A stretch of 64,000 nucleotides of DNA, from the NCBI GenBank assembly GCA_041657425.1, contig JBBABY010000005.1, positions 22,834 to 86,833 on the forward strand. Direction: 5' to 3'. This DNA comes from an archaeon. GTDB lineage: Archaea; Iainarchaeota; Iainarchaeia; Iainarchaeales; CSSED10-239. Below are positions 17,708 to 61,824 of this stretch, piece by piece (position 1 is the first letter of the stretch; every line of letters starts with the position of its first letter). A program made the position numbers and the translations under genes. Under the pieces are notes generated by a model. The model did no database searches, had not been told where the DNA came from, and saw nothing but the letters and a program-made list of their open reading frames with translations.

Positions 17708-18904
17708 TTAATATTTTAGAATATCTTTAGCTTTTTCAACATCTCCGTTATTTAGAAGATCATAGATTCTCTTATAATCAAAGTCTTTGGAGATTTTAGT
17801 TTGCTCAATTTGCTCAGAGAAGATTTCTTTTGCAAGTTCTTGTATGTTTTTATTTTCGGTTTGTAATTTCTTAAGTTGATCAATGCTTTCTTTTAGTCTT
17901 TTTTCTTCAATATCGTTCTTGATTGAAATATAAAAATAATCAGAATATTCTTTTTTAATCTCATTTAAATTTAGATTCTTAAGAGATTCTCCGCTTTCAA
18001 GTTCCCCTTTAATTCTAATTCTTACAATTGCTTTTTTTTCAGGAGTCTTTGTAAGTTTTTCAAGTTCAGTTTTGATTTGTTGCAAGATTTCAAAAACGGT
18101 TTTTTTAGAAAACTTAATATCTATATAATGTGTTTGTCTAATGTTTTTTATTTCAAAGAAGTTTGTTTCTTTAGTTTCAGTATCAATAATAAAATAACCT
18201 TTTGGTTTTTCAGTTTCTTTTTTTTTAATCTGTGTTGTTACTGTGGAACCAGGAAGTAAGAACTTAACTCCTGAAGGAAGATCAATAACGCTTGACCAAT
18301 GAAGATGGCCATTAACAATAACATCAAATCCACTTGGAAGGTCACTTAAGGAAATTGTGGCGATCATCTCGTCTTCAAAAGGCAGATATTCCAAAATTGA
18401 CTGATGTATCATTAAAAGGTTGTATTCTCCCTTTACTGGTTGTGGAGAAAACTTTTCAAGAAGATAGTCCTTAGCATATTTTTCTGGAACTCCAGTCATT
18501 CCAAAGATATTTATTTTTTCATTTATAAACGAAAATTTGTCTGCTTTTAAAAGTTTAAGAAAACCCATAGATTCTAAAAGTTCAACAGTAGTGATATAGT
18601 CTTTTCCACGATATTCGTGGTTACCAATAATTGCAATCATTGGTATTTTTGTTTTTAATTCTTCTAATTTATTTGGAATATTAATGTCGCTTAAAAGATT
18701 AATTGTTTCAAACAAAACTTCTGGAGAGGGAATAGAAATATCAAAGAGGTCTCCAGGAACCAATACTAGATTAATATTTTGTTCTTCAAGTTGCTTGAAG
18801 GCAGTATAAAGATTATTAAAAGAGTCTTTTCCAAGTTCAGTGTCATAGCTAACTCCAAGGTGCCAATCGCTAATAATTGCAATTTTCATAAATAAGATAT
18901 ACAC
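17708..18904 (-). CDS. mre11: Mre11/SbcD-family DNA repair nuclease
   Basis: Calcineurin-like phosphoesterase motifs (ISDWHLG, GDLFD, GNHE, GHLH); no adjacent rad50. Confidence 0.7.
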   Translation of the reverse strand: MYILFMKIAIISDWHLGVSYDTELGKDSFNNLYTAFKQLEEQNINLVLVPGDLFDISIPSPEVLFETINLLSDINIPNKLEELKTKIPMIAIIGNHEYRGKDYITTVELLESMGFLKLLKADKFSFINEKINIFGMTGVPEKYAKDYLLEKFSPQPVKGEYNLLMIHQSILEYLPFEDEMIATISLSDLPSGFDVIVNGHLHWSSVIDLPSGVKFLLPGSTVTTQIKKKETEKPKGYFIIDTETKETNFFEIKNIRQTHYIDIKFSKKTVFEILQQIKTELEKLTKTPEKKAIVRIRIKGELESGESLKNLNLNEIKKEYSDYFYISIKNDIEEKRLKESIDQLKKLQTENKNIQELAKEIFSEQIEQTKISKDFDYKRIYDLLNNGDVEKAKDILKY

Positions 18905-19042: not shown

Positions 19043-19456
19043 TTACATATTCTTTAAGATCTCTGCAATGTATTTTTGTGCATCGTTTAATTCAGATATT
19101 TCTCTTGTTAATTTTGCAGAGTATTTTTTTGCTCCAAGTTCTTGAAATTCGTGAATGTCAAAGTCTTCAACTGTAGAAAATAAAACTTTTGGATCTGTCC
19201 CATTAATAATCTCATTTAATAATTTAGTTGTATTTTTTTGTTTTCTATAAAAAAAAGAATTAGAAAATGCAAGTCTTTTTTTCTTTGCATCTTTTGTTTT
19301 GGTTAAAGAAAGAAATGTGTTAATGTGTTTTTTGTGAGAGTTAGTTGTGGTTGTATCTAATACCAGTTTTGGTTTTTTTAAATGATTTGGAAGGCCAACC
19401 TTTACTTGCTTTTTTGCAAGTTTTGCTTTTCCCATTTTTTTAAAATCACCAAACAC
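19043..19456 (-). CDS. hypothetical basic protein
   Basis: 137 aa, Lys-rich; overlaps the stop of the upstream PEP-utilising-enzyme gene by 1 nt, so operonic. Confidence 0.4.
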   Translation of the reverse strand: MFGDFKKMGKAKLAKKQVKVGLPNHLKKPKLVLDTTTTNSHKKHINTFLSLTKTKDAKKKRLAFSNSFFYRKQKNTTKLLNEIINGTDPKVLFSTVEDFDIHEFQELGAKKYSAKLTREISELNDAQKYIAEILKNM

Positions 19457-21249
19457 TACATATCTTTTACTTCTTTTAAGATCTTTTTAATTTTCTCTTT
19501 AGCAATCATACAAACTGAACCAGGATATTCTGCTCTTAATCTTGAAATTTCAGAAGCAGTAAATATTTGTTCAATTGGTATAACTATTTGCTTAACCTTA
19601 TCAACATCTATGTGATTTAGATCTTTAATATTTAAAGTTCCTTTTGCATCAACATATGTTTTTACGTTTTGATTAGCCGTTGGTTTTTCTTCAATTTCTT
19701 CTTCTCTTGGCTTATTAAAGATTATATGTTCTGGAGCAGTGTTTGTTTTTTTAATTTCTTTTTTATTAATTATAACAGCACCTTTTTCTCTAAGTTCTCT
19801 TTGTTCTTGCCATAATTGTTTTGTTCTTTGTTGTCTTTCATCCAAAAAATCATCTTCTTCTGGATGTATATCAACAATATCAAGAGAAGCAATAGAATGA
19901 ACTTCACCAGTCTGTCCGTTTATTTGAACTTTATCTCCATCAAGTAATTGTTCTGTTCCAAATCTAGTTCCAACAATACATGGTTTATCAAGATCTTTAG
20001 TTATTACTGCTGCATGACATAATGAACTCCCAGCATTAGTAATTACTCCTCTAGCAATTCTCATTGCTCCAACCATGTCTTGATCAGTCATTGCAGTAAC
20101 AATAATTGATTCTGAATTAACTTTTTCAAGATCATTGTAATTCATAATGTTAACAACAATTCCATTAACTGTTCCGTTAGTTACTCCAACACCTTTAATT
20201 AATAATTCACTTTTAAAAGTATTAATTTTTTGTTGTCCACACTTTTTTGTTTTCTCTGCAGTATTTGGATTAACTGCTTCTGAGCCGATAATATAAACAT
20301 CAGCTTTATCAATAGCCCATTCAATTATCTGCGGTGTTCCAAAATATTCTTCTAGTTTTACTGCAGTGTTAGTTAAATCTTTAAGAACGTGAGTATTAAT
20401 TTTAGGTTTTTCTCTTTCGGATTCTTGAACTGCTTCTTTAGCCGTTGCACCTTTCATTCTTTTAAGTTCCCAGTCTTGTCTTGAAACTGTTTTACCAAGA
20501 GTCAAGTATGGTTTCTTTTGTGTTTCGTAATGATCAGGAGTAATTTCTTTAATAACATGAGCTGCTCCAAAACCATAGACTGCTTCAATAACAACAGTGT
20601 TTGGGTCAGTTGCACTTTTACTTGAAATTATTATTCCTGAAGACTTTGCATTAATCATATTTTGAATAATTATTCCAATTCCGAGTCTTTCAATATTAAT
20701 TTCTTTCTTGTGAGCATATTCTAAAACATCAGGACTATAAAGAACACCCCATGTTTCTTTAACTGCTTTAATCATTTCTGGCTTTCCTTTAATGTTTAAA
20801 GATCCGCCTTCTTCTTCAATAAATTTAGTATCACAAACTTCTCCGTCGTCACAAACAACAGAACATCTTATTGCAATATAAGCATCAGCACTGCTTGGAA
20901 GCCAACCACCAGTTGCATCTCCAAGTTTGCCATAATATTTATATAATTCAATTTCTGTTTCTTGATTTAATTTTCCTTTAACAATTAATTGTTTGATTTC
21001 GCTTGATTTAGTTTCAATATCTTCTCTATCACTATAATTTATACTTCTTAAAATTTCAACAATCTTTGGTTTTAAATTATTCATTTGTACAAAATTGAAA
21101 AATTCAGTAGCAGTAACAACAAAACCTCTAGGAACCGTTATCCCTGTGATTGCAAGTTGAGCAAGTCTAGCTGCTTTTCTCCCAATTGTTCTAGAATCAG
21201 TTGAACCAAGTTCTTTAAGCCATCGTATGTTTTCGTAATCCATTCCCAT
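19456..21249 (-). CDS. PEP synthase/pyruvate phosphate dikinase-like protein (ATP-grasp N-domain plus phosphohistidine swivel domain, lacking the PEP/pyruvate TIM-barrel domain)
   Basis: PPDK_N-like N-terminus (TIGRKAARLAQL, GITVPRGFVVT) and mobile-domain motif NAGSSLCHAAVITKDLDKPCIVG; C-terminal 150 aa unrelated. Confidence 0.65.
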   Translation of the reverse strand: MGMDYENIRWLKELGSTDSRTIGRKAARLAQLAITGITVPRGFVVTATEFFNFVQMNNLKPKIVEILRSINYSDREDIETKSSEIKQLIVKGKLNQETEIELYKYYGKLGDATGGWLPSSADAYIAIRCSVVCDDGEVCDTKFIEEEGGSLNIKGKPEMIKAVKETWGVLYSPDVLEYAHKKEINIERLGIGIIIQNMINAKSSGIIISSKSATDPNTVVIEAVYGFGAAHVIKEITPDHYETQKKPYLTLGKTVSRQDWELKRMKGATAKEAVQESEREKPKINTHVLKDLTNTAVKLEEYFGTPQIIEWAIDKADVYIIGSEAVNPNTAEKTKKCGQQKINTFKSELLIKGVGVTNGTVNGIVVNIMNYNDLEKVNSESIIVTAMTDQDMVGAMRIARGVITNAGSSLCHAAVITKDLDKPCIVGTRFGTEQLLDGDKVQINGQTGEVHSIASLDIVDIHPEEDDFLDERQQRTKQLWQEQRELREKGAVIINKKEIKKTNTAPEHIIFNKPREEEIEEKPTANQNVKTYVDAKGTLNIKDLNHIDVDKVKQIVIPIEQIFTASEISRLRAEYPGSVCMIAKEKIKKILKEVKDM

Positions 21250-21334: not shown

Positions 21335-21359
21335 CACTGGACAGCTACCCCCCCGAAAA
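21335..21359 (+). promoter_or_regulatory. GC-rich motif CACTGGACAGCTACCCCC(CC)GAAAA upstream of radA (copy 1)
   Basis: 18-nt core identical to 61187..61204; GC-rich in an AT-rich intergenic region about 80 bp upstream of radA. Confidence 0.4.
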
Positions 21360-21436
21360 TACCCCCCTTTTGAAAAACAATAGTATTATTACCCAAAATA
21401 AAAGGGTTTAAAAGAATAAAAGGAGAGTAGATATTT

Positions 21437-22456
21437 ATGAAGAAGGTAAAGAAGGAAGATAATATGGATGAAGAATTTACTAATGAAGAAGTTTCTGAAA
21501 ATACAGTTGTAGAACCAGGAAAGAATATGTCAATAACTGATTTGCCAGGTATTGGTCCAGCTTCTGCTGAAAAACTTTTAGCTGGGGGTTATGATTCTTT
21601 AGAAGCTATAGCTGTAGCTTCACCTAGTGAACTTGTTGCAGTTGCTGGTATTGGAGAAGGAACTGCAATTAAAGCAATTAAGGCAGCAAGGGATTCATTA
21701 GAAATGGGTTACGAAACTGCAGAAAAGATACTTGACAGAAGAAAATTAATAGCAAGAGTTTCAACTGGTTCAAAGGAGCTTGATGAATTGTTAGGTGGAG
21801 GAATAGAAAGTCAATCAATCACAGAAGTCTATGGAATGTATGCTTCTGGAAAATCACAATGGTGTTTTCAATTATGTGTAATTGCGCAAATGCCTACAGA
21901 GAAGGGTGGGTTAAATGGAGGAGTTCTTTACATTGATACAGAAAACTCATTTAGACCTGAAAGAGTAGCGCAGATTGCAAAGTACAGAGGGCTTGATCCT
22001 GAAGAAGTTATGAAAAATATTTTTGTAGCAAGAGCGTTTAATAGTAATCATCAAATGCTTTTAGCAGATAAGGCGCAAGAACTAATTAAAGAAAAAAATA
22101 TTAAACTTGTAATTGTTGATTCCTTAACAAGTCAATTTCGTTCAGAATTTGTTGGTAGAGGTCAGTTATCAGACAGACAACAAAAACTAAATACTCATAT
22201 GAGATTACTTCAAAAGCTTGCAGAGCTTTATAATGTTGTTGTGTTTGTAACAAACCAAGTAATGTCAAGACCTGATGTTTTGTTTGGAGATCCAACAGAT
22301 GCTATTGGTGGTAACATCGTTAAGCACGCTTCAAAAACAAGAATCTATTTAAGAAAGAGTTCAGGGTCTAAAAGAATTGCAAAGCTAGTAGATTCTCCAA
22401 GCTTACCAGATGGCGAAGCAGTATATCAAGTTACAGAAAATGGAATCACAGATTAG
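21437..22456 (+). CDS. radA: DNA repair and recombination protein RadA
   Basis: N-terminal HhH ([13 protein letters not shown]), Walker A region [14 protein letters not shown], RecA-fold core. Confidence 0.9.
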
Positions 22457-53928: not shown

Positions 53929-54107
53929 CTTTACAATTAGTTTAGAAAATTATGTAATAAACAGTTTATAATCTTTATTGTTAATTTTGGCAATCGCCAG
54001 ATTTATATACATTTTTGCTCATAAAATATATATTTGCGGCCAATTTGTAAGGTTATTGTGTGGAAATAGTAAACTATTGCGCGCTAACCTCAAAAAAAAT
54101 ACACGGT

Positions 54108-54129
54108 ATTTTTTAGGATCCTAAAAAAT
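54108..54129 (+). promoter_or_regulatory. 22-bp perfect palindrome ATTTTTTAGGATCCTAAAAAAT in divergent pyrG / tRNA-Ser intergenic region
   Basis: Perfect dyad symmetry centred on GGATCC. Confidence 0.35.
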
Positions 54130-54205
54130 CAGTGATTTTTTATGAGAGCGCAACCGGTTTAGTTAACTAGAGAAGAAACGCCTATGAACTGGGCGAACAG
54201 TTAAA

Positions 54206-54936: not shown

Positions 54937-55070
54937 TTTAGTTGTGTGTCGATAAGCAACCAGTTAGTGCCATACAAATTCTGGCTGGGCGCCAACTCAG
55001 GAAAACAAAAGTTTTCAGGATGCCAAGAAATCGCAGCGACGATTTGTTGTGCACGACCGCAACCGGTTGT

Positions 55071-55153
55071 GCAGAGGTGGTGGAGTGGTCAAACGCACTA
55101 GCCTGGAAAGCTAGAGTCGAAAGACTACGCGAGTTCGAATCTCGTCCTCTGCG
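55071..55153 (+). tRNA. tRNA-Ser (GGA)
   Basis: Acceptor GCAGAGG/CCTCTGC, anticodon stem CTAGC/GCTAG with loop CTGGAAA, long variable arm, same T-arm as tRNA-Ser(TGA). Confidence 0.85.
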
Positions 55154-55369
55154 ATTAAATTTAGATCAACAGTTTGCTGTAAGTGAGCTTGTAGACTGGA
55201 TTAAAGGCAAGAAGCTCGCCCACGACTACGAAACAGGACTAATTTCTAAAATCCCGCTAATCTTCGAAGATACTCAAAAACATACGTACGTTTCTGAAAA
55301 GTGTTCTCAACAAAATCTTTTTAAATACAATATACAATAACTATTTATAGAAATAAAGTGTGATAAAAA

Positions 55370-56047
55370 ATGGTTGTAAGAAAATTAACAAAAGGCAGTT
55401 TCCCAAATGCAAAAAATATTAAGAGCATTAAAATAGGAGGTCGTAAATTCGTTGCAGAAAAGAAACAGACAGCAGACATAAAACTAGAAATAAATAAAGA
55501 AAAAATTAAAATAATCAGTTCTTTAAAAAAACGTCTAGAGAGAGGAGAATTAAAATTAACCAGTGCCGATTTAATGAAATTAAAGGCACAGGGAATTAGC
55601 CTGATTGAATTAAGAAAAGTAATAGCTCCAGAATATTTGTTAAAAACTTTGAGTTTAAAAGCATTTGTAAAAATATATGGTCAAGAAGATGTAGTTAAGG
55701 CTTTTAATGGTATTTCCCGATTAATATTTGATGCTGGTTTGAGGGAGACAGTTTATGCTATTGATCCAAAATATTTTAAAAATGAATTTTCATTAAAAGA
55801 AATTGTGAATAAGCTTTTTAAATACGGCTACAAGGATGTGTCACAGTATAGGGCCCCAGATATGCAAAGCTATATGTCACAAAATGGACGTTATGAAGTA
55901 GCAAAGGCTTGGGGGCTTAAGAATATAATAGAAACATTTGGGATTAAAGAGACTATGGTGGCTATGGGTAGATCAGAATCTGAACTTAGATCTTTATTAA
56001 ATGCATCAGATTACGATTTAGGGAAAGCTTTTCCTCGCGAATATTAG
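55370..56047 (+). CDS. hypothetical protein (islet segment 1)
   Basis: 225 aa, no family recognised; its TAG stop is formed by the first bases of the att-like repeat. Confidence 0.4.
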   Translation: MVVRKLTKGSFPNAKNIKSIKIGGRKFVAEKKQTADIKLEINKEKIKIISSLKKRLERGELKLTSADLMKLKAQGISLIELRKVIAPEYLLKTLSLKAFVKIYGQEDVVKAFNGISRLIFDAGLRETVYAIDPKYFKNEFSLKEIVNKLFKYGYKDVSQYRAPDMQSYMSQNGRYEVAKAWGLKNIIETFGIKETMVAMGRSESELRSLLNASDYDLGKAFPREY

Positions 56048-56090
56048 AGTCTCACGACTACGCGAGTTCGAATCTCGTCCTCTGCGATTT
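56047..56090 (+). repeat. direct repeat of tRNA-Ser(GGA) 3' end (att-like, copy 1)
   Basis: GACTACGCGAGTTCGAATCTCGTCCTCTGCGATT is identical to 55120..55153 plus 2 nt. Confidence 0.85.
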
Positions 56091-60798: not shown

Positions 60799-61125
60799 AT
60801 GACTAGAAAAAAAGACGCAGGAGAATTGTTACATTATTTTTATAAATCGTCTATAGTTGATCACTCCATTTCTGCAGAAGATTTACTAAAAGAAATAAGA
60901 TGGGGAAGTTGGAGATTAGAAAAAGCAATTAAATATCTAAGAGATGTTGATGCGATTGAAATTACTCTATTTAAAGAAAAGATTGAAAGATTACAAAAGT
61001 TTGTAATAGTGGGCCTAACAAAAACAGGTATCCAAATAATAGAAGATAAATCCAAATTTAAAACCACTTTCGGATTTGAAATAAACTTAGAGAGCACAAA
61101 GTGGAGTTGGAATACTAAACGATAA
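60799..61125 (+). CDS. hypothetical protein
   Basis: 108 aa, no family recognised. Confidence 0.35.
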   Translation: MTRKKDAGELLHYFYKSSIVDHSISAEDLLKEIRWGSWRLEKAIKYLRDVDAIEITLFKEKIERLQKFVIVGLTKTGIQIIEDKSKFKTTFGFEINLESTKWSWNTKR

Positions 61126-61186
61126 ATATTGCGCGCGAGCTGAACGCTGTCGTTTTTGGGATGAAGCACTTTTTCTAAAAGGGCTC

Positions 61187-61209
61187 CACTGGACAGCTAC
61201 CCCCGAAAA
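61187..61209 (+). promoter_or_regulatory. GC-rich motif CACTGGACAGCTACCCCCGAAAA upstream of DEDD exonuclease gene (copy 2)
   Basis: 18-nt core identical to 21335..21352 upstream of radA; 31 bp before the ATG at 61240. Confidence 0.4.
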
Positions 61210-61239
61210 CTTTAAACACTATTTCTTTCATAGTTATTT

Positions 61240-61824
61240 ATGAATTACTTATATGTAGATATCGAAACTGTTCCTGTGGATAAGGAAAAACATTTATCTC
61301 TAGATGAAGAGGAAAGAAAGAAACTCTTAAATCCAATTGATTCAAAAATTATTGCAATCGGTCTAAAGTCAACTAAAGATAATAAGCTAGTCATTCTTCA
61401 ATCTGATAATGAAAAGGAAATGTTAACTGAATTTTGGAAGATTTACGACAATTTTAGAGCAAATAGTTCTTTAACAAACAAGATTGTGGGCTTTAACATT
61501 AAGCAGTTTGATATTTCTTTTTTAGTGACTAGAAGCTTTGTTAATGGAGTTACAGTTGTTCCTTTCGTCTTAAAAGAGATAATCGACATTAGAGACCTAT
61601 TAACTTGCTTTAAAAGAGGGCCAACAAGAGGCACTTTAAAGGAATTTGGAGAGATTATTGGCGTGGTCTTAGTAGAAGACATGGACGGCTCAAAAGTGGC
61701 TGAAACTTACTGGTCAGGAAATATTGATTTAATCAAGACTTACTTAGCAAAAGACATAGAATTAACTGAAAAGATTCACAACAAGGTAATGGAACTAGGA
61801 CTAGACAAAATAAGAGAATGGTGA
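61240..61824 (+). CDS. DEDD-type 3'-5' exonuclease (PolB-exo-like, RNase H fold)
   Basis: Exo I YVDIETVP (D-x-E), Exo II VGFNIKQFDISFL, C-terminal Y-x3-D region (YLAKDIELT). Confidence 0.6.
   Translation: MNYLYVDIETVPVDKEKHLSLDEEERKKLLNPIDSKIIAIGLKSTKDNKLVILQSDNEKEMLTEFWKIYDNFRANSSLTNKIVGFNIKQFDISFLVTRSFVNGVTVVPFVLKEIIDIRDLLTCFKRGPTRGTLKEFGEIIGVVLVEDMDGSKVAETYWSGNIDLIKTYLAKDIELTEKIHNKVMELGLDKIREW

Follow-up and report, generated by a model that had tools for sequence, protein, structure and literature searches.

An 18-mer that occurs twice in the archaeal DNA analysed here forms, with a probability that we put at about 70%, the 5' portion of a conserved ~55-bp promoter module under which a set of genes is controlled as a regulon in one clade of DPANN archaea (Diapherotrites/Iainarchaeota). 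The genes sharing the element are probably, as far as can be judged from sequence, co-regulated and related to DNA damage, and as a set they appear to be previously undescribed. The initial annotation had proposed a DNA-repair regulon site shared by radA and an exonuclease gene, and this proposal is supported by the placement of the element, by the bias in the functions of the genes behind it and by its conservation across lineages. As a cis-regulatory element it is new but belongs to a familiar kind, the unusual features being a near-invariance over ~25 bp and a C-rich octamer at the position of the TATA box. A literature search returned no paper describing this motif, and no DPANN regulon was described in the literature searched.

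Within the window, i.e. the whole stretch of 64 kb that was analysed, CACTGGACAGCTACCCCC is located at 21335-21352 and at 61187-61204, both on the plus strand and with zero mismatches. The G+C content of the window is 29.3%, in line with the low background of ~30% given before. The count of two copies was confirmed: no third match to CACTGGACAGCTACCCCC was found in the window at up to three mismatches, searches of the window with the 13-nt core (two mismatches allowed) and with an nhmmer profile recovered only the same two copies, and 100 dinucleotide-preserving shuffles of the window contained zero matches, so that no copies are expected by chance. The 18-mer had been described as being followed by GAAAA, which is correct for copy 2, where GAAAA (61205-61209) comes directly after a run of five C; in copy 1, two extra C extend the run to seven before GAAAA is reached (21355-21359). 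Copy 1 is situated between two divergent genes, one for a PEP-utilising/PPDK-like protein (19456-21249, minus strand) and radA (21437-22456, plus strand), the ATG of the latter (21437) lying 77 nt past GAAAA. Copy 2 precedes a gene on the plus strand (61240-61824) for a PolB-exonuclease-like DEDD 3'-5' exonuclease of 194 aa, whose ATG at 61240 lies 30 nt past GAAAA; the distances of about 80 and 31 bp reported earlier agree with these measurements. Both gene identities hold, the radA product matching RadA-named proteins at 100% and the Pfam Rad51/RecA family, and the exonuclease being an RNase-H-fold protein of the PolB-exo type (PF10108, E 7e-13; PF13482, E 2e-7). On its 5' side, copy 2 is adjoined by a 108-aa ORF (60799-61125) without a Pfam match, a homologue of which (41% over 51 aa) is located directly 3' of an element copy in locus L029.

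Copies of the element are found in a restricted group of genomes. When genomes representing one species each were scanned for exact matches, the 18-mer was present at 16 loci of five low-G+C archaeal metagenome-assembled genomes (MAGs), one of which accounts for eight of the 16 loci, and five bacterial matches in the species-representative scan are read as chance. A related 21-mer was detected in 59 metagenome contigs, chiefly from anaerobic digesters and activated sludge, and in none of the IMG/VR viral contigs. The nhmmer profile yielded 93 hits, 73 of them unique by sequence; after one copy on a G+C-rich contig (L023) had been set aside, 72 unique copies served as the working set. The source databases name the hosts Candidatus Diapherotrites and Candidatus Iainarchaeum (DPANN archaea), and the loci nearest to those of the window in the searched DNA collections are ~80-84% identical. 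On large contigs about one copy is found every 80-100 kb, and by extrapolation a whole genome would contain some 10-15 of them. Copies also cluster in accessory-gene islands, with two to three per 8 kb in L004/L064, L006, L042, L049 and L054. The L064 island (14.4 kb, on the same contig as L004) carries three copies together with genes for a YgjP-like metallopeptidase, an AAA_14/DUF4143 ATPase, Fic, UvrC, and HD and NUDIX proteins, a mix typical for accessory/defence islands. In several assemblies the element coincides with a break point or with a scaffold gap of 100 N; two copies are abutted by 100-N runs, for which deliberate masking was considered, but the gap in L008 has duplicated flanks, so that all three such runs are probably scaffold gaps, i.e. 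assembly breaks at the repeat.

In the numbering used here, the C of CACTGG is +1. Conservation sets in sharply at -3, and over positions +1 to +25 it is nearly complete (CACTGGACANCTACCCCCCCGAAAA). The core CACTGGACANCTA (+1 to +13) is invariant or nearly so in the 72 copies, with an information content of 1.2-2.8 bits per position, and position 10 (G/C/T/A) is the sole core position that varies freely. It is followed by the C-run (+14 to +20), by GAAAA (+21 to +25) at the position of a TFB recognition element (BRE), by a slot for the TATA box (+26 to +33) and by an A/T-rich region (+46 to +55), which is read as a melting region and ends at the proposed transcription start (~+55). The A/T fraction from +46 to +55 is 0.88-1.00 in 64 copies, compared with a background of ~0.7. 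Two forms can be distinguished by the TATA slot. Most copies, including that of radA, belong to a long form with the consensus yrACCCCC at +26 to +33 and a TTTTGAAA-like sequence at +34 to +41, so that the TATA box is replaced by a C-rich octamer, whereas a minority, including copy 2 of the window, belongs to a short form in which C-run and GAAAA are followed by a canonical TATA box. The slot contains one to four A/T positions out of eight in the long form and six to eight in the short form, and BRE plus canonical TATA box are present in the short forms W2, L070, L001, L066b, L045b, L089-93, L086 and L088. For such an octamer in place of a TATA box, no citable precedent was found.

In copy 1, the core CACTGGACAGCTA, the putative binding site of a factor, spans 21335-21347 on the plus strand (about -55 to -43 relative to the predicted transcription start), and the run of seven C with GAAAA spans 21348-21359, GAAAA taking the BRE position at about -35 to -31. 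The C-rich octamer TACCCCCC (21360-21367) occupies the expected TATA position, and TTTTGAAA together with the A/T-rich box ATAGTATTATT (+46 to +56), which may serve as a -10-like melting region, extends over 21368-21390. Copy 2 consists of the same core CACTGGACAGCTA, the run of five C and GAAAA as BRE (61187-61209, plus strand), followed by the canonical TATA box CTTTAAAC (61210-61217), whose TTTAAA begins 29 nt 5' of the ATG. The initial annotation had also considered a BRE variant; GAAAA does sit at the BRE position, but the core and the C-run lie 5' of it. The element is asymmetric, without terminal inverted repeats and without a palindrome, and the sequence 5' of it is unrelated between copies. 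Its near-invariance over ~25 consecutive positions in dozens of copies exceeds that of typical transcription-factor sites, and could have an alternative cause in promoter copying or gene conversion.

G+C-rich hairpin modules are found 5' of about one third of the copies, in several unrelated versions. One of them (ATTGCGCGCGAGC...) fills the interval between the 108-aa gene and copy 2 (61128-61186, plus strand), contains two T5 runs (61153-61157 and 61170-61174) and is outside the conserved element; it is probably a terminator or insulator. Modules of this kind (ATTGCGCGCGAGC..., ...CGCAACCGGTTG), in which the 6-bp stems vary and an 8-nt loop, NSCGMAAC, is conserved, recur in the window at 54076-54160 and 55021-55069; they lie directly 5' of copy 2 and of both tRNA-Ser genes. 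The two tRNA-Ser modules fold well beyond shuffles (z -3.6 and -3.0), and the one at 54076-54160 forms an imperfect palindrome whose ~75 nt have AGGATCCT at their centre. A role as terminator, insulator or leader structure is conceivable for the family. In the same region, the end of tRNA-Ser(GGA) is duplicated: its 3' part at 55112-55156 recurs 933 bp further on at 56045-56089 (93% over 45 nt), and the repeats flank a 225-aa ORF (55370-56047) without a Pfam hit; this arrangement resembles what a small integrated element leaves behind at its att site.

In public genomes and metagenomes the many copies of the element are placed non-randomly with respect to genes. An ATG-started ORF on the same strand begins at +41 to +135 behind 60 of the 72 unique copies. 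The remaining 12 comprise five that are truncated by the contig, two that precede GTG or TTG starts, one with an ATG at +176 and four located before a structured non-coding region, and wherever enough sequence is available for a judgement, the copy is directed toward a gene or RNA behind it. Gene functions are strongly biased to DNA metabolism and to nuclease/defence genes. Counted in unique copies, which include orthologous loci of related populations and are not independent events, the families are a conserved 49-aa protein and a lineage-specific 485-aa protein (eight each), ORF6N and RadA proteins (seven each), Bro-N proteins (six), DinD-like Bro-N proteins (five), YhcG/DUF1016 PDDEXK nucleases (four), a VapB-like antitoxin followed by MazF (three) and Schlafen/AlbA_2 proteins (two), while KilA-N, several winged-helix proteins and the DEDD exonuclease are represented by single copies. 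Many of these genes are of the accessory or defence type rather than repair genes, and the set also holds a tail of unrelated small genes. Both targets had initially been characterised as acting on DNA ends; radA and the exonuclease do belong to a biased set, but the regulon is wider than DNA-end-processing enzymes. Absence of the element from the gene for an Mre11-like calcineurin-type phosphoesterase (17708-18904, minus strand) shows that the regulon does not span all recombination genes. This gene is located 2.4 kb from radA in a synteny that is conserved, also in L086-L088. The upstream region of the UvrC gene in L064 likewise gave no profile hit.

Three of the downstream units deserve separate description. 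Sequence searches of Pfam and PDB with the 485-aa protein gave no match, but its predicted fold (pLDDT 86.6) retrieved family-B DNA polymerases throughout the best 50 Foldseek hits in PDB, with probability 1.0, and it is predicted with high confidence to have the fold of a family-B DNA polymerase, of which it would be a very divergent, small version (mini-PolB). The protein (L007, 4589-6049, plus 34 homologues, P0001-P0035) is restricted to the lineage, absent from the window and ~8-10% identical to known PolBs; its gene always has the element on the 5' side, and of a cluster of cysteine residues C242, C245 and C345 are invariant and C244 is nearly so. The 49-aa protein is a basic, stand-alone protein (MFRxxNKFRENVCVMYKSVDDL...) without a Pfam match, encoded behind a perfect Shine-Dalgarno (SD) sequence in L017, L026, L035, L044, L048, L057, L069 and L078, and ranks among the most constant members of the regulon. 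Its ORF, which starts at +67, is truly coding, with 2, 7 and 10 variable sites at the three codon positions of codons 2-14. Finally, the element in L074 (7915-8045), and likewise in L056, L009 and L031, has behind it a stretch of ~130 nt that is non-coding, conserved and structured (z -2.4), terminates in CTTCCTTCCCCTTTTTGCC and has no match in Rfam; it could represent a small RNA belonging to the regulon.

Further evidence for a regulatory function comes from a comparison of orthologous promoters. Footprinting of the radA promoter revealed the element 5' of the gene in all close relatives, i.e. in at least nine genomes with ~81% coding identity (L010, L014, L027, L030, L036, L040, L058, L072 and L077), and the core stays invariant while the flanks and the coding sequence diverge to ~80%. 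More distant loci carry diverged forms. In one lineage, radA (L086) and the gene for mini-PolB (L081) both have CTCGGCCAGCTACCC on their 5' side, and in L088 radA is preceded by CACTGGTCAAGCACCCCC. In the NPIE01 genome, TGGCCACYTRCTCT, i.e. (C/T)TGGCCAC(C/T)T(G/A)CTCT, is found upstream of the genes for mini-PolB (L083) and the exonuclease (L093), and the exonuclease orthologues L089-92 have ACTGGACAYCTAC, in which ACTGGACA(T/C)CTAC is kept and the C-run is lost, so that diverged forms are present at the exonuclease promoters of L089-L093 as well. A radA relative with 23% G+C (L087) has no recognisable element. Across the clade there are three variants of the motif, CACTGGACA, CTCGGCCA and TGGCCAC, and in different species radA and the mini-PolB gene retain the element as well as their synteny. 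The concerted appearance of a variant at several promoters of one lineage points to co-evolution with a trans-acting reader, which would predict such a pattern.

These data also bear on the alternative that survives best, which we regard as improbable: a reused, 'mobile' constitutive promoter, in which a strong promoter of 55-65 bp with its short leader was copied by recombination in front of various genes, without a regulator or a common signal. Promoter reuse is documented in prokaryotes (PMC3575422), the assemblies break at the element, the copies cluster in accessory-gene islands, and the spacer and the ATATATTATTGGTGAT leader are also ~80% alike before non-homologous genes of the same genome. 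However, copying does not readily account for a core that is invariant while flanks and coding sequences are at ~80%, and the lineage variants shared by radA, mini-PolB and the exonuclease speak for a trans-acting reader rather than for recent copying. Moreover, the conserved core lies 5' of the BRE, where basal factors read no sequence, the TATA box is missing in most copies, which would be odd for a strong constitutive promoter, and the core genes of the regulon are functionally coherent.

The position of the transcription start can be predicted from the start codons. An SD sequence is used in about half of the genes of the clade, and in its SD-less genes, which served to calibrate the TATA position, TATA-like hexamers peak at -30/-29 from the ATG, the canonical leaderless geometry. 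Three classes of start codons are found behind the element. Those at +54 to +58, in five unrelated families and in copy 2 of the window, never have an SD; those at +66 to +69 are preceded by GGTGAT or GGCGA from +56/57 in 19 of 20 copies; and those at about +88 to +117 usually have an SD near the ATG. Since the start-codon and SD positions of all classes agree with one start, we infer a single transcription start at ~+55, which fits all three. The mini-PolB loci (ATG at +88 to +108) share a conserved ATCTGCC block from ~+55. Given this start, the TATA box of the short form lies exactly at -30 to -23, and core plus C-run lie at -55 to -36. For radA, a start at ~21390-21391 with a leader of 46 nt and the SD sequence GGAG at 21422-21425 is predicted, while the exonuclease mRNA is probably leaderless, with the start at 61240; the TATA/ATG geometry of copy 2 is repeated in the exonuclease orthologues L089-L093. 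Other assignments of the TATA box were rejected. The A/T-rich box at +46 to +55 cannot be one, with a start codon at +54 to +69 in 34 copies and a coding 49-aa ORF at +67; with TTTTGAAA (+34 to +41) as TATA box, genes of the +54 to +58 class would begin 5' of their transcript; and a general TATA box 5' of the element is excluded by an A/T content at background level from -20 to -5 and by the G+C-rich modules there in one third of the copies.

A function at the RNA level is very unlikely, be it as a conserved 5' UTR, as a target of a small RNA or as the small structured RNA that the initial annotation had offered as a possibility. TATA-like boxes at -14 to -7 are present in nine of 64 copies and could start transcripts inside the element, which would give a C-rich leader. 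Yet a conserved promoter 5' of the element is missing, the region being G+C-rich in one third of the copies, and at the exonuclease loci the core lies 5' of the TATA box for a leaderless start and would not be transcribed from that promoter. Single-sequence folds of the element did not surpass those of shuffles (z +0.3 to +0.5), RNAalifold on 30 copies gave -0.14 kcal/mol with neither covariation nor a consensus structure, and Rfam returned no hit at gathering or permissive thresholds.

Slighter still is the chance that the element serves a mobile element or an integron-like cassette system for recombination or attachment, or is a MITE-like dispersed repeat: the two window copies are direct repeats ~40 kb apart, and copies cluster with accessory genes and adjoin other repeated G+C-rich modules, but the 40 kb between the window copies contain housekeeping genes and tRNAs, the synteny of radA and mini-PolB is conserved across species, terminal inverted repeats and palindromes are missing, the orientation toward the gene start is fixed, no integrase was found among the Pfam-scanned genes of the one island inspected (L064), and IMG/VR gave 0 hits. 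Specific identities of this type were rejected likewise: attL/attR of a 40-kb island (housekeeping interval, multi-copy promoter element), a MITE or other dispersed repeat (asymmetry, fixed orientation, ~1 copy per 80-100 kb), an integron cassette site (no palindrome, no integrase in the L064 island) and a viral origin (0 IMG/VR hits). A tRNA or split tRNA was discarded too, ARAGORN reporting in the window only five ordinary tRNAs located elsewhere.

For the regulated promoter, which we favour, the following mode of action is conceivable. The core and the C-run would be bound by a putative dedicated, sequence-specific DNA-binding factor; a dedicated factor is assumed because core and C-run are too far 5' for contact with TFB or TBP. 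GAAAA would serve as BRE, and the region from +46 to +55 would melt. The factor may be an activator that recruits TBP and TFB to an intrinsically weak promoter. In the case of Ptr2, Ouhammouch and coworkers reportedly found in 2003 that this regulator activates by helping TBP and TFB to bind. We favour an activator because most copies hold yrACCCCC in place of the TATA box, and judged from its layout the promoter is probably activator-dependent. Alternatively, the factor might be a repressor that occludes BRE and TATA box. The second ACCCCC, in the TATA slot, could form a second half-site. As to the stimulus, DNA damage or foreign-DNA stress is the most likely trigger, since RadA, mini-PolB and the PolB-type exonuclease are coupled with nucleases and with DinD/Bro-N/ORF6N/KilA-N proteins, an argument from gene content only. 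Further reaching, and in our view rather doubtful, is the idea of an SOS-like response to DNA damage or foreign DNA in Iainarchaeota-type DPANN archaea that operates via a TATA-less, activator-dependent promoter class, with a factor reading CACTGGACANCTA and the C-run (perhaps also the second ACCCCC) and co-inducing RadA, the previously unrecognised mini-PolB, the proofreading-type exonuclease and nuclease or 'defence-island' proteins.

Several known systems invite comparison. In the bacterial SOS response, target genes are marked by the LexA box, and dinD is a classical LexA target. The present set resembles it in that one cis element unites the gene of a recombinase with those of a polymerase, of nucleases and of DinD-like (Bro-N) proteins, but the element lacks a palindromic operator of the LexA type and works in the context of the archaeal transcription machinery. 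Mobile promoters (PMC3575422) share with it the near-identical upstream regions before non-homologous genes in one genome, whereas the present element is kept before orthologous core genes across species and shifts in concert. The DNA-damage regulon of Sulfolobales, controlled by Orc1-2 via the DDRE (5'-ANTTTC-3'; PMC6061795), is similar in having a promoter-proximal archaeal element common to a set of stress genes, tens of bp 5' of the start codon, at which a dedicated factor activates or represses. It belongs to another phylum, however, and in Sulfolobus it controls pili, the exchange of DNA and tfb3 instead of radA or genes for polymerases; the 20-bp DDRE consensus AATAGTTTCRGWDTACTCWS has no match in the element, which contains a trivial ATTTTC on the minus strand only. 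Upstream activating sequences abutting the BRE are known in archaea for GvpE (PMC2241852), EarA at the fla promoter (PMC5512572) and Ptr2 (PMC2995911), and Sta1 acts with the damage-inducible radA paralogue sso0777 (PMC2175319). Common to these and the present element are a specific site of ~20 bp directly 5' of the BRE and weak basal elements. Their sites, however, are short, degenerate, often dyad-symmetric and confined to one or a few operons, while the present element is asymmetric, near-invariant over ~25 bp, found at no fewer than 10 promoters per genome and combined with a C-rich octamer for the TATA box. A last comparison concerns the mini-ORB TTCCAGTGGAA with its invariant TTCC and GAA (PMC1904270), since the minus strand of the element, GTCCAGTGcGAA beside a G-run, recalls a mini-ORB with its G-string. 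It has GTCC for TTCC, however, the GAA lies one base off, the G-run is found on the other side, the copies are dispersed at promoters instead of being clustered at an origin, and the likeness is gone in the variant lineages (GGCCGAG). Identity with an ORB/Orc1 site was rejected as a resemblance only, and judged from these sequences the mini-ORB likeness is only a weak lead.

To our knowledge, the regulation of DNA repair in archaea is largely unknown, and the sole worked-out network is that of Orc1-2 and the DDRE in the Sulfolobales, in which repair genes are not induced. The element offers a handle on this control, as it provides a list of co-controlled genes, including those for a divergent PolB-family protein and the 49-aa protein, and a bait for isolating the regulator. 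It may also define an archaeal promoter class with a conserved C-rich sequence for the TATA box, and it links repair genes to genes of the Bro-N, ORF6N, YhcG and Schlafen types, which are usually seen as passengers of defence islands. If the SOS-like reading is true, this would be the first archaeal damage regulon outside the Sulfolobales and the first regulon of any kind in DPANN archaea.
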